Shown: piece by piece, positions 60,112 through 64,000 of the stretch
Position numbering within the stretch: position 1 is the first letter of the stretch
How the letters are laid out: each line of letters opens with the position of its first letter
Assembly (NCBI GenBank): GCA_947628205.1
Contig: CANQYX010000002.1
Coordinates: forward strand, 4,975 to 68,974
Length of the DNA: 64,000 bases
DNA from: an uncultured Clostridia bacterium
Lineage (GTDB): Bacteria; Bacillota; Clostridia; Christensenellales; UBA1242
Direction: 5' to 3'
Notes under the pieces: model-generated
The model's input: only the letters and a program-made list of their open reading frames with translations
Told to the model about the DNA's origin: nothing
The model's database searches: none
Position numbers and translations under genes: made by a program

Positions 60112-60786
60112 ATGAAAATTGAACCAGAACACCAATCCACATTTCCTCTTCCGCTAACAGCGGAAAAAGAAAAATATTATCTTGAAAAAATGCAACAAGG
60201 CAACAAACAAGCAAAAGAAAAACTCATTTTGCACAACATGCGTTTAGTTGTACACATTGCAAAAAAATATTTTGTAAAAAATGAAAATGAAGATTTAATT
60301 TCCATTGGATATTTTGGTCTTGTTAAAGGTTTAGAAAGTTTTCAATTGGATAAAGATATAAAACTTTCAACCTATCTTGGCAGGTGCATTGACAATGAAA
60401 TCAAAATGTATTTAAGAAAGGTTAAAACTCGCCAAAACTACGTAAGCATTGAATCGTCAACATATAAATTTAAAAATGGCAACGAACTGACATTAAACGA
60501 TATATTAAAGGACGAAAACAGCGAAACTCTACTTAACTTAATTAATGAGATTTTGGATAAAGATCAGCTAGAAAATCTTTTGCGCTGTTTAAGCGAACTT
60601 GAAGTTAAAATTATAACCATGCGCTACGGGCTATGCGATGGCATTGAGCACACGCAAAACGAAATTGCGCAATTGTTGGGCGTTAGCAGAAGTTACATTT
60701 CCCACCTTGAAAAAATCGCCATAAACAAGATGAAAGACGAACTAAAATTTAACGAAAAATTTAGAGAAAACAATAATAATTTTTAA
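60112..60786 (+). CDS. Sporulation-type sigma-70 family factor, SigE-like, lacking a pro-sequence
   Basis: 224 aa. ...FPLPLTAEKEKYYLEKMQQGNKQAKEKLILHNMRLVVHIAKKY...KLSTYLGRCIDNEIKMYLRK...SRSYISHLEK aligns with mature SigE/SigK. Confidence 0.75.
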   Translation: MKIEPEHQSTFPLPLTAEKEKYYLEKMQQGNKQAKEKLILHNMRLVVHIAKKYFVKNENEDLISIGYFGLVKGLESFQLDKDIKLSTYLGRCIDNEIKMYLRKVKTRQNYVSIESSTYKFKNGNELTLNDILKDENSETLLNLINEILDKDQLENLLRCLSELEVKIITMRYGLCDGIEHTQNEIAQLLGVSRSYISHLEKIAINKMKDELKFNEKFRENNNNF

Positions 60787-60836: not shown

Positions 60837-61532
60837 ATGGTTTTTGAAAGTTTAGGTCAATTTTTATCAAAACTTATGCTGTTTCATGGCTATGTTAACG
60901 AATATAATGGCTACCCCAAAGCACTAACAAAGGAAGAGGAAGAAAAATTGGTGGAACTTATGGCTGAGGGAGATAAATCCGCCCGTGAAAAGCTTATAAA
61001 CCACAATATGCGCCTTGTGGCACATGTTGCAAAAAAATATAACGGCGCGGCTGAGGCAGACGAGTTAATTTCGGTTGGCTCTATTGGGCTAATTAAGGCA
61101 ATTGATAGTTTTCGCGCAGAAAAGGGTTCGCAACTTTCAACTTATGCAAGCAGATGCATTGAAAATGAAATGTTGATGCTTTTGCGTGCCAACAAAAAAC
61201 ATAAAGTTTGCGAAAGCATTGAAAAGGCAATTGGCGTGGATAAAGAAGGCACCGAATTAACACTTAGAGATATAATTCCGCAAGAGGAAGAGGATGACCC
61301 CGACCACATTGTTGAAATTCGTGTTTTAATGGAAGAAGTTAAGGCGGAAATGAAAAAATTGCTAAGCGCACGCGAATATCAAATTATATCCCTCCGCTTT
61401 GGCGTTGAGGATGGCATAGAACGCACCCAACAAGAAGTGTCCGAAATGATGAACATAAGCCGAAGTTATGTTTCTCGCATTGAAAATAAGGCATTTGAGA
61501 TTATCCAACAACAATTTAAAATAAAAAATTAG
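60837..61532 (+). CDS. Sporulation-type sigma-70 family factor, pro-SigK-like
   Basis: 231 aa. MVFESLGQFLSKLMLFHGYVNEYNGYPKALTKEEEEKLVELMAEGDKSAREKLINHNMRLVAHVAKKY parallels B. subtilis pro-SigK (...[38 protein letters not shown]...). AGAGGTGA SD. Confidence 0.78.
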   Translation: MVFESLGQFLSKLMLFHGYVNEYNGYPKALTKEEEEKLVELMAEGDKSAREKLINHNMRLVAHVAKKYNGAAEADELISVGSIGLIKAIDSFRAEKGSQLSTYASRCIENEMLMLLRANKKHKVCESIEKAIGVDKEGTELTLRDIIPQEEEDDPDHIVEIRVLMEEVKAEMKKLLSAREYQIISLRFGVEDGIERTQQEVSEMMNISRSYVSRIENKAFEIIQQQFKIKN

Positions 61533-61556
61533 GGGCATTTTGCCCCTTATTTTTTT
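61527..61556. terminator. Bidirectional terminator between the sigma gene and the LRR gene
   Basis: aaaaaattaggggcattttgccccttattttttt. Confidence 0.75.
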
Positions 61557-63211
61557 GTGTAAATTGTATAACTTCCACTTGTGGATTTAGTAAAATATGA
61601 TGTATTGTTTAAATAAGTGTTGTTATATCCACCAATGCAAGATGTTAAAACTTTTAAAGTCCCACCTGTCTGCAACGCATTAATTAAGCGGCCGCAAGAT
61701 AAAGTATATGATGTTATTTCCCTATAAATATAGCTACTATTTAATGTAATTGTGTCAAATTTGCAATATGAGAAAAAATTTCCACTAATTCCCCTTAAGT
61801 TTGCGGGGATTGTTATAGTTTTGAATTTAAAATAAAAAGAACCATCACTAAGAATAAATTTGCATTGTTCGGGAATTGTTATAGAATTTAAATTACTGCT
61901 GCTAGTATATTTAAACATGATCATATATGGATTGTTAGAATTGCCCAAATACGCAAATCCACTATCTGTTGCACTATAATTTAAATTAACATTATGCCCT
62001 AAACCATCAAATGCATCATATCCTATATACTCCACGCTATCTGGAATAACAACATCACCTGAAACATATACGCAACCATCAAAAGCGGAATCCTCAATCC
62101 TTTGCAATGTTGATGGGAATTTTATACTTGTTAAAGAAGTACAAGAGTAAAACGCGTATCCTCCAATAGTTGTAATATTTAAATTTGACATATCTCCGCC
62201 ATTGCTTGAACCTAGCAATAATGTTTTTGAGGTTTTGTCAACTAACACATTGCATTCTTTGGTTTCCGTTTTATCTCTGCTAGTAAAAGTTGAGTTCCCT
62301 TTGTCCACATAAATTTTACTAAGACAATTATCTACGATTCCAAATGTTGTATTCCCAAAGGATTTTATCGAACTCCCAACATTAAGTTGAGATATATTAC
62401 TTCTATATAACATTTCATAAAGCTTGAAATTTTGCACATTGTTACCTATATTAAAAACAGCTCCGTCAGAATATAAGTCGCCGAAAACTCCAGCTCCACC
62501 GGAAGATGGGTCGGCGTCTGTTTCGCAATTTTTCGCATTATAATTGACAGTGGTTAGCGAAACACAATGTGCAAATGCACAGTGTCCTAAAAATGTTACA
62601 TTGTCATGAATGGTAACGCTTGTAAAATCGTTACTGTAAAACGCACTATTCCCAATAGACGTTACTTGATTAGGCACGACAAAATTCCCTGAAAATTGGC
62701 AAGAGTAAAAAGCATGATCAGAAATAGAAGTTATCCCTGTTGGTATATTTAATGTGCCGCTAAGTTTACGACAATTACAAAAAGCGTATGGGCCAATAGA
62801 TGTTAGACCATCTGGCAGTTTTAATGTTCCTTCTATCGTGTTACATTCATAAAAGGCCCTCTCTCCAATTGTTTTAACATTTTTGCCTATTTTTAGTGAT
62901 GTGAATTTTTTGGATTGATAAAATGCTCTTTCGCCTATTTCAGTAACGGGCAAATTGTTTCCGTTTTCATCAGCACGAGTGTCGGGTATTTCCAACACTG
63001 TTGTAGGATAACCATCATTATATCCCACCACCTTATATTCCGTGCCTGCCGCATTTTTTTCATATTTTAACAACTCTTTCGGAGCGGTGTATTGAATATT
63101 TACACTGCCATCTAGTTGTTGGCGGTCCAAACAAAAAACAAATGTTCCACATGCCAACAAAAATGAAAGGCATGCCATTATTGTTAAAAATTTTGTTCGA
63201 GATTTAAACAT
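61547..63211 (-). CDS. BspA-like leucine-rich-repeat surface protein with an N-terminal signal/anchor and a possible lipobox
   Basis: 554 aa. MFKSRTKFLTIMACLSFLLACG hydrophobic leader, then repeated ...IP..VTSIG..AFY.C... LRR_5-type units. GGAGGAAAG SD. Confidence 0.75.
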   Translation of the reverse strand: MFKSRTKFLTIMACLSFLLACGTFVFCLDRQQLDGSVNIQYTAPKELLKYEKNAAGTEYKVVGYNDGYPTTVLEIPDTRADENGNNLPVTEIGERAFYQSKKFTSLKIGKNVKTIGERAFYECNTIEGTLKLPDGLTSIGPYAFCNCRKLSGTLNIPTGITSISDHAFYSCQFSGNFVVPNQVTSIGNSAFYSNDFTSVTIHDNVTFLGHCAFAHCVSLTTVNYNAKNCETDADPSSGGAGVFGDLYSDGAVFNIGNNVQNFKLYEMLYRSNISQLNVGSSIKSFGNTTFGIVDNCLSKIYVDKGNSTFTSRDKTETKECNVLVDKTSKTLLLGSSNGGDMSNLNITTIGGYAFYSCTSLTSIKFPSTLQRIEDSAFDGCVYVSGDVVIPDSVEYIGYDAFDGLGHNVNLNYSATDSGFAYLGNSNNPYMIMFKYTSSSNLNSITIPEQCKFILSDGSFYFKFKTITIPANLRGISGNFFSYCKFDTITLNSSYIYREITSYTLSCGRLINALQTGGTLKVLTSCIGGYNNTYLNNTSYFTKSTSGSYTIYTKK

Positions 63212-63277
63212 CTTTCCTCCAACTAGTGCTTGTTTTATGCGGTTATTTATTTTTCCACATTTTTGCCCTATATATTC

Positions 63278-63307
63278 ATGTTAGCACATTGCCCCCCCCC
63301 CTGTCAA
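63278..63307 (-). promoter_or_regulatory. Putative promoter of the LRR gene with a G10 tract in the spacer
   Basis: On the minus strand, TTGACA (63307-63302), then GGGGGGGGGGcaatgtgc (18 nt), then TAACAT (63283-63278) with an upstream TG. The homopolymer is at 63292-63301. Confidence 0.5.
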
Positions 63308-63420
63308 GCGATTTTATGCTATTTTTTAAAATTTTTTTAAAAAAATTTTAAAAAACGGGCAATTTGTACCCGTTTTTAATAAAAATATCGTTTTTTACAG
63401 CAATTTTGCTATATAAGGTT

Positions 63421-63599
63421 GAGATTGCCACATCACTTCGTTCCTCGCAATGACATTTTTAGTGAGATTCTTCGACTTCACTTCGTTCCGCTCAGAATGA
63501 CAAGTGAGTGGTTGAGATTGCACAGCGGTTTGATGGTCTAACTGCTTCGCGATGACTTAAGAGATTCTTCGACTTCACTTCGTTCCGCACAGAATGACA
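63421..63599 (+). repeat. Array of four GAGAT...ATGACA repeats
   Basis: 63421-63455 gagattgccacatcacttcgttcctcgcaatgaca; 63464-63502 gagattcttcgacttcacttcgttccgctcagaatgaca; 63514-63557 gagattgcacagcggtttgatggtctaactgcttcgcgatgact; 63561-63599 gagattcttcgacttcacttcgttccgcacagaatgaca. Confidence 0.88.
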
Positions 63600-63602
63600 A
63601 AA

Positions 63603-63749: not shown

Positions 63750-64000
63750 CATTTAGGTGGCAGTTTGGTCTATAAGCCGAGTTCTGTGTTAGATGGTCAT
63801 CTATCTAATCCATAAATTGCTTTATGGCTTTAGCGGTGTACGTATTCTAGCGAGCAACGTTAAAACGAATACATTTACCTTGCTTCGGATGGGGTTTGCA
63901 TGGACCAAGTTTGTCGCCAAACTCGCGGTGAGCTCTTACCTCGCCTTTTCATCCTTACTAACCACTCAGGGGTATAGCGGTTATTTTCTGTTGCACTTTC
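63750..64000 (-). ncRNA. rnpB: RNase P RNA, type-A-like (partial; 5' part beyond the window end)
   Basis: The reverse complement contains GAAAGTGCAACAGAAAATAACCGC, GGATGAAAAGGCGAGGTAAGAGCTCACCGCGAG, AAACCCCATCCGAAGCAAGG and ACAGAACTCGGCTTATAGACCAAACTGCCACC. These parallel the E. coli M1 RNA blocks GTGCAACAGAGAGCAAACCGCC, GGTAAGAGCGCACCGCG, AAACTCCACCCGGAGCAAGG and ACAGAACCCGGCTTATCGGTCAGTTTCACC. The 3' end is approximate. Confidence 0.85.

Follow-up and report, generated by a model that had tools for sequence, protein, structure and literature searches.

Switches built from a homopolymer in a promoter spacer are textbook matter in Neisseria, Treponema and Mycoplasma. Homopolymers lie between the -10 and -35 elements of porA, fetA and opc (PMC2791445), and in porA (poly-G) and fetA (poly-C) of N. 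meningitidis the length of the tract sets the spacing, with an optimum of 17 nt and a multi-level output (PMC2791445, PMC7864442). In Treponema pallidum, the (putative) surface protein paralogues tp0126 and tprE/G/J/L carry poly-G tracts of 7-11 in their promoters; the poly-G of tp0126 lies in the spacer, where the optimum is the length that gives 17 nt, and G8 and G10 at tprL differ in reporter activity (PMC7864442).

A multigene version of this arrangement is the vlp surface family of Mycoplasma hyorhinis, a member of the Mollicutes, which have no cell wall. Work by Yogev in 1991 and by Citti and Wise in 1995 reportedly described vlp genes as having a common 5' region and lipoprotein leader with divergent external repeats. 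Each vlp gene has its own spacer homopolymer and switches independently, and spacer indels are also described for maa2 and vmm (PMC2268961, PMC10502178). The promoter poly-T of M. agalactiae vpma has been shown not to switch (PMC2268961), a caution that applies here as well. In Ca. Mycoplasma girerdii, BspA-like genes carry length-variable repeats, and the variation was seen in metagenomic reads (PMC5476646).

The locus described here lies in a window of 64,000 bases, the whole stretch of DNA that was analysed, where a run of ten G residues occupies the spacer of a putative sigma-A-type promoter in front of a gene for a BspA-type LRR protein. The tract probably works as a dimmer of expression driven by slippage, a device of well-known type. 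Like porA and fetA, this gene for a putative surface protein has a G/C homopolymer in a putative sigma-70-type spacer; unlike it, those two belong to Gram-negative pathogens, target an outer-membrane porin or receptor, and are single loci that form no paralogue family with a shared cassette. Their switching has been demonstrated experimentally, whereas here we deal with a candidate read from the sequence, and the promoter here has an extended -10. The T. pallidum genes resemble it in having poly-G in promoters of surface protein paralogues, but belong to a spirochaete, most of the tpr tracts are placed at the -10 or beyond it, and their length variation was shown by fragment analysis. By analogy, the locus would be of the porA/fetA type in mechanism, with tp0126 as the closest poly-G example.

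In organisation, the LRR family appears closest to vlp, in that both are multigene surface families with spacer homopolymers, two traits that are putative in the LRR family; this is an analogy rather than membership. The vlp tracts are poly-A, and their genes are clustered and encode lipoproteins with short tandem repeats, whereas here the tracts are poly-G, the proteins are of the LRR type and the genes lie on different contigs. There is no homology to Vlp lipoproteins or to the mycoplasma vlp locus: the proteins here are of the LRR_5 kind, and the organism has class A RNase P and sigma factors of the sporulation type. Ca. M. girerdii likewise combines BspA-type LRR paralogues with simple-sequence repeats; those are mostly coding dinucleotide repeats that act by frameshift as a translational ON/OFF switch (PMC5476646). 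With none of the compared systems is there sequence homology, so that the likeness is one of working and not of gene-family membership.

Promoter anatomy

On the minus strand, which is the gene strand, positions 63278-63307 read TTGACA-GGGGGGGGGG-CAATGTGC-TAACAT. Here GGGGGGGGGG is G10 (C10 on the plus strand, 63292-63301; a length taken from a MAG consensus, which can be off by one) and CAATGTGC (63291-63284) supplies the other 8 bases of an 18-nt spacer (Table 1). The complete extended -10 motif is TGTGcTAACAT, with its TG at 63286-63285; TRTGn, the -16 or extended -10 motif, is typical of Gram-positive sigma-A promoters. A consensus scan picked this promoter independently (10/12 matches, spacer 18, TG present) and so agrees with the direct reading and with the earlier note, which had placed a C10/G10 run in an 18-nt -35/-10 spacer with TG 5' of the -10. 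According to the scan, it alone among the sites upstream of the LRR gene has a perfect -35, and from the upstream terminator to the LRR start codon there is no promoter that fits better. Region-wide, promoter-like sites numbered 9 versus 10.0 +/- 2.9 in shuffles, that is, not above chance; it is therefore by position, quality and conservation, and not by enrichment, that we call the promoter. The -10 matches only 4/6, which counts against the switch proposed below.

After the G10 run, the longest G/C runs in the 64,000 bases (38% G+C) measure 5, and an i.i.d. model predicts 0.007 runs of at least 10 per window. This census bears out the earlier remark that it is the longest G/C homopolymer of the window. 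A G-quadruplex was rejected by inspection, as a single G10 run cannot give four separate G-tracts. A 41-aa plus-strand ORF over the tract (63226-63351), which is not on record, was put down to the C run (PPP) as an artefact. Close to the -35, on its upstream side, there is a perfect 34-nt palindrome of A and T only (TTTTTTAAAATTTTTTT/AAAAAAATTTTAAAAAA, 63322-63355), which extends into the T tail of the terminator and could be UP-element-like or plain low-complexity spacer.

The promoter is located 67 nt upstream of the gene, which encodes a BspA-type LRR_5 protein of 554 aa. A Shine-Dalgarno sequence, GGAGG, is found at 63220-63216, and the predicted 5' UTR ends in GGAGGAAAG-ATG. This 5' UTR folds only modestly (z = -2.35), a riboswitch-like reading is unsupported, and Rfam detected no known RNA other than RNase P over the 5' UTR and the intergenic region.

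Table 1. Coordinates, strand and basis of the features at the LRR locus and of the leaderless genes of the window
Feature	Position	Strand	Basis
G10 homopolymer, proposed slippage-prone element	63292..63301	-	homopolymer census
-35 hexamer TTGACA, 6/6, directly abutting the tract	63302..63307	-	sequence and consensus scan
-10 hexamer TAACAT, 4/6, A2 and T6 retained	63278..63283	-	homologous to TAAAAT in L008
TGTG, TRTG-type -16 / extended -10 motif, 1 base 5' of the -10	63285..63288	-	sequence; TG flagged in scan
A/T-only tract 5' of the -35, possibly an UP-element-like region (putative function)	63308..63350	-	
Terminator-like hairpin and T run, which would insulate the promoter from upstream transcription	63351..63377	-	scan
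Predicted 5' UTR, ~60 nt	63212..63271	-	start site predicted ~7 nt after the -10
P0001, gene for 554-aa BspA-type LRR protein	61547..63211	-	Pfam LRR_5, E = 2.4e-54
Codons 1-43, leader in the shared 5' cassette	63083..63211	-	amino acid-identical in P0006 and P0048
Leaderless start codons	7168, 11368, 25237, 35237, 38454, 50956, 59941	-	
Leaderless start codons	13673, 43819, 46521	+	

The LRR gene and its neighbourhood

The product of the LRR gene, P0001, has a 43-aa leader specific to the family, then an LRR body that varies, and a C-terminal tail that is conserved. In the leader, basic residues precede a hydrophobic stretch, and the invariant Cys14 and Cys21 could form a lipobox. The LRR_5 match (Table 1) and this hydrophobic, Cys-containing N terminus agree with the earlier description of the target as a BspA-like LRR protein with a leader. 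Judging from these features P0001 would be secreted or membrane-anchored, and we infer a surface location. Its match to the NCBIfam LRR adhesin HupY/LrrG is weak and below the family cutoff.

Upstream, the strand of the gene also carries a class A RNase P RNA, with its 3' part at 63757-64000 (161.9 bits), which is followed by a terminator (63732-63705). Between this terminator and the second hairpin (63377-63351) there is a stretch of ~330 nt with direct repeats. Two 40-nt repeats, GAGATTCTTCGACTTCACTTCGTTCCGC(T/A)CAGAATGACAA, lie 97 nt apart at 63464-63503 and 63561-63600 and are 98% identical, with a third, partial copy at 63430-63449; no further copies were found elsewhere in the window, and no Rfam family matched the repeat.

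At its other end, the LRR gene shares a bidirectional terminator with two convergent SigK/SigE-like sigma factor genes. These stand in tandem at 60112-60786(+) and 60837-61532(+), and SigK/SigE-type sporulation sigma factors scored best for both. With 254.1 vs 252 bits, the second makes the cutoff of the SigK subfamily, the first stays below all equivalog cutoffs, and no spoIIGA-like gene was seen in front of the pair. Past the sigma genes follow lepA-hemW-hrcA-grpE-dnaK-dnaJ, together with the housekeeping genes pcrA, ligA, smc, priA, topA and ffh; neither mutS nor mutL was found within the 64-kb window. By its gene order, its class A RNase P and its sporulation-type sigma factors, the organism would belong to the Bacillota, probably to the Clostridia. 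The lineage is rarely sampled, considering that even LepA is the sole member of its 90% cluster.

A paralogue family with a common 5' cassette

No orthologue of P0001 with more than 50% identity was found among 5.8 billion clustered proteins, and exact-protein look-ups returned nothing on record. An exhaustive HMMER search with the 50-aa leader against 1.84 billion representatives retrieved only P0001, P0006 (455 aa), P0048 (381 aa) and P0121 (448 aa), the last being 60% identical over the leader query. Residues 1-43 are identical in P0001, P0006 and P0048, which outside this segment are 38-50% identical. All four proteins have the leader and a C-terminal tail of ~70 aa in common and differ in their LRR bodies, and a profile search with the four revealed no additional family members.

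P0048 is encoded on ENA contig L007, which comes from the same ENA sample as contig L001. Since L001 matches the window over 3.7 kb at 100% identity, P0048 is a paralogue from the organism of the window itself. L007 starts within a poly-G, as GGGGGG-CAACGTGC-TAACAT-GAATATATAGGGCAAAAATGTGG..., so that its tract, cut by the contig end, has at least six G's. A break in the tract fits length heterogeneity and equally fits low coverage (~3x) or poor reads after poly-G. From the tract to about codon 45, L007 and the window are ~95% identical in DNA, with identity decaying beyond; the predicted 5' UTR of the window gene is 95% conserved in L007, and all leader differences are synonymous.

P0121 comes from another organism and lies on Logan contig L008, at a locus with 30% G+C, where the leader DNA is 65% identical to that of the window. 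Positions 122-150 upstream read TTGCTA-tt-GGGGGGGG-caaatgg-TAAAAT, in which the tract GGGGGGGG is G8 and the spacer is 17 nt; the 283-nt upstream region has no second promoter-like site, no G/C run of at least 5 other than the G8 occurs in 4.4 kb, and a TG (TGg) precedes the -10 here too. Downstream of the tract, TGgTAAAAT-TGAATA-AGGG-AAAATG of L008 aligns to TGcTAACA-TGAATAtatAGGGcaAAAATG of the window with a score of 25, as compared to 16 +/- 3.1 in shuffles, 12/1000 of which reach 25. A G run without interruption has thus persisted at the homologous promoter position across ~35% nucleotide divergence in very A/T-rich genomes; as a rough guide, the chance that eight G's all survive independently at 65% per site is ~3%. 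Directly after the -10, L008 has a short hairpin at 155-172 (TAAGGGAAAATGCCCTTA), and its 5' UTR is ~130 nt long with repeated TTGCAAA motifs versus ~60 nt in the window. Extra regulation in the L008 5' UTR is possible.

A poly-G at the same promoter position was found in every member with readable upstream DNA, namely the window gene, L007 and L008. As far as the sequences tell, promoter, 5' UTR and putative signal/anchor leader together are a conserved 5' cassette of a small lineage-specific LRR family.

Spacer lengths of other promoters in the window

The window provides its own ruler for promoter spacing. Among its 54 larger ORFs, ten, lepA included, have a TTGACA-like/TAnAAT-like promoter in which exactly 6 nt separate the end of the -10 from the start codon; five offsets were allowed, and all ten fall at 6 nt. 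As these genes have no Shine-Dalgarno sequence, we regard them as leaderless (Table 1), and the fixed geometry validates their promoters independently of the poly-G finding. Seven of the ten spacers are 17 nt, two are 16 nt and one is 18 nt (also readable as 17), which indicates that the organism uses canonical sigma-A promoters with 17 nt preferred. The LRR promoter of this assembly is one G over this usual spacing, and G9 would restore 17; as the earlier note said, the loss of one G would give 17 nt (10 G and 8 bases being 18), and 17 is the modal spacer of the anchored promoters. With ~19% of the genes looking leaderless, the number is unusually high for a Bacillota-type genome.

A proposed spacer-length switch and its alternatives

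We think it rather probable that the locus is a promoter-spacer homopolymer switch, in which the G10 tract sets the spacer length of the sigma-A-type promoter TTGACA-18-TGTGcTAACAT that drives the LRR gene. This promoter would give a leadered, Shine-Dalgarno-dependent mRNA for the secreted or membrane-anchored BspA-type LRR protein. Slipped-strand mispairing at replication would add or remove single G's and thereby shift the distance between -35 and -10. G9 would give 17 nt, the preferred spacing of the organism, and the highest expression; expression would be reduced with G10 (18 nt, this assembly) or G8 (16 nt), and little -35-dependent expression would be left with G11 or more or with G7 or fewer. 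We expect G9 to be the strongest, G8 and G10 to follow at about the same level, and lengths up to G7 and from G11 on to be weaker still. Because an extended -10 (TGn) lowers the dependence on the -35, a graded dimmer is likelier than a clean ON/OFF switch, and the output may be weakly graded, as both the window promoter and that of L008 have an extended -10. What the earlier note had proposed, phase variation, gains from the promoter anatomy, from the same-position tracts in L007 and L008 and from the 17-nt modal spacing, while the hypermutability of the tract and the effect of its length on transcription are its predicted part.

The locus also has some of the marks of a contingency locus. Its G/C tract is of at least ~8 and far above background (G10 here, G8 in L008), its target would be a surface or host-interaction protein, to judge by LRR_5 and the leader, and it appears to belong to a set of paralogues with a common promoter, 5' UTR and leader and with divergent mature regions. 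Since each paralogue would have its own copy of the cassette, the family could turn members up or down independently, which would give combinatorial surface states and mixed surface phenotypes within a clonal population. Vlp-like combinatorial surface variation by a poly-G-spacer cassette family, in a rarely sampled lineage of Bacillota (probably Clostridia), is an idea that we put forward only tentatively.

The alternative that survives best, although we consider it unlikely, is a static promoter element with a fixed role, such as an operator, a rigid strength-tuning spacer or a cassette boundary. L007 and L008 both have the tract at this position, which speaks of conservation rather than instability, and the extended -10 of both complete promoters lessens the need for exact spacing. 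A promoter homopolymer without variation is on record (PMC2268961), and the tpr poly-G tracts work together with a CRP-like regulator (PMC7864442). The lengths G10 (18-nt spacer, window) and G8 (17-nt spacer, L008) belong to different genes in different organisms, and their difference could therefore be fixed divergence and not switching. To our knowledge, however, all bacteria that have been examined show G/C runs of at least 8 to be intrinsically prone to slippage, and a mixed sequence would serve a fixed role better. The two complete tracts do differ in length, their flanks (an extra tt; a right flank of 7 nt vs 8 nt) do not hold the spacing constant, and neither a regulator that might be a candidate nor a second operator was seen.

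A further reading, which seems to us improbable, is that the tract modulates expression by a route other than spacing, with the true promoter or start lying elsewhere or depending on the extended -10 only or on an alternative sigma factor. In that case the tract would act on open-complex formation or on the binding of a regulator, as do the tprE/G/J/L tracts of T. pallidum. The presence of an extended -10, a start site that is a prediction, promoter-like sites that are not above chance region-wide, and two adjoining SigK/SigE-like sigma factor genes all leave room for it, and tprL provides a precedent (PMC7864442). On the other side, a perfect TTGACA directly abuts the tract, L008 also has a -35-like TTGCTA at 17 nt, and the genome clearly uses TTGACA-17-TAnAAT promoters. 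A sporulation-sigma -10 is argued against by the CAT-containing sequence after the -10, which is not conserved in L008.

That the tract is a sequencing or assembly artefact, an objection already raised in the earlier note, or a chance homopolymer without function is very improbable. The contig is metagenome-assembled, homopolymer lengths are error-prone, and L007 breaks in the tract; yet the tract is internal to a 69-kb contig and was found at the same promoter position in three loci and three independent assemblies (NCBI MAG, ENA SPAdes and Logan), and it is just such runs that are rare here, given the i.i.d. expectation and the lone G8 of L008. Least probable of all is a promoter switched by DNA inversion, with the poly-G incidental, for although two reports (PMC11602134, PMC11892184) present invertons as the common phase-variation device of gut Bacillota and Bacteroidota and the promoter stands between the arms of one imperfect inverted repeat (63181-63197 / 63339-63355; 17 nt, 82%), this sole pair is mostly A/T low-complexity with one arm within codons 5-10, no other inverted repeat of at least 14 nt flanks the promoter, and no invertase or recombinase gene was found among the neighbours.

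The spacer-length switch that we favour is of a known kind, and it is the lineage and the target family that are new. Such switches are hardly documented in metagenomic spore-former-type Bacillota, where surveys focus on invertible promoters. If tract-length heterogeneity is true, BspA-type LRR adhesin families of uncultured Firmicutes can diversify by slippage, and there would be a homopolymer phasome in a group whose phase variation is otherwise credited almost entirely to invertons. A signature for metagenome mining would then be TTGACA, poly-G and TGnTAnnAT upstream of a shared leader.

Further copies of the promoter and cassette

Look-ups with the sigma factors returned four short contigs, of which L001 and L002 were checked and are essentially identical to the window. 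They end at window positions 62939 and 63165, respectively, both inside the LRR gene and short of the promoter. Short-read contigs break in or near the 5' cassette in three places (position 1 of L007, the end of L002 and the end of L001), which may reflect paralogue repeats, low coverage or read problems at poly-G. Breaks at the cassette imply that the promoters of the LRR family are systematically missing from assemblies.

Four small intergenic ORFs are not on record. A gapped DNA promoter pattern had 0 matches in genome_contigs and 2 in metagenome_contigs, both unrelated promoters without poly-G, and a cassette pattern had 0 in genome_contigs and 0 in viral contigs. The sole match of a degenerate leader pattern, an A/T-rich giant-virus contig, was dismissed as a chance hit. 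None of these look-ups and pattern scans turned up another copy of the window locus that runs across the tract.

In an unrelated organism, JGI contig Ga0210019_1027945 (L006) reads GCTTGACA-gataaattt-CAATGTGCTAACAT at positions 246-276. It has the same -35 and the same 14-nt block with TGTGcTAACAT, with a mixed 9-nt sequence instead of the G run and a spacer of 17 nt. As the TGTGCTAACAT block occurs in L006, it is a workable promoter half elsewhere, and the L006 promoter appears to precede a structured leader.
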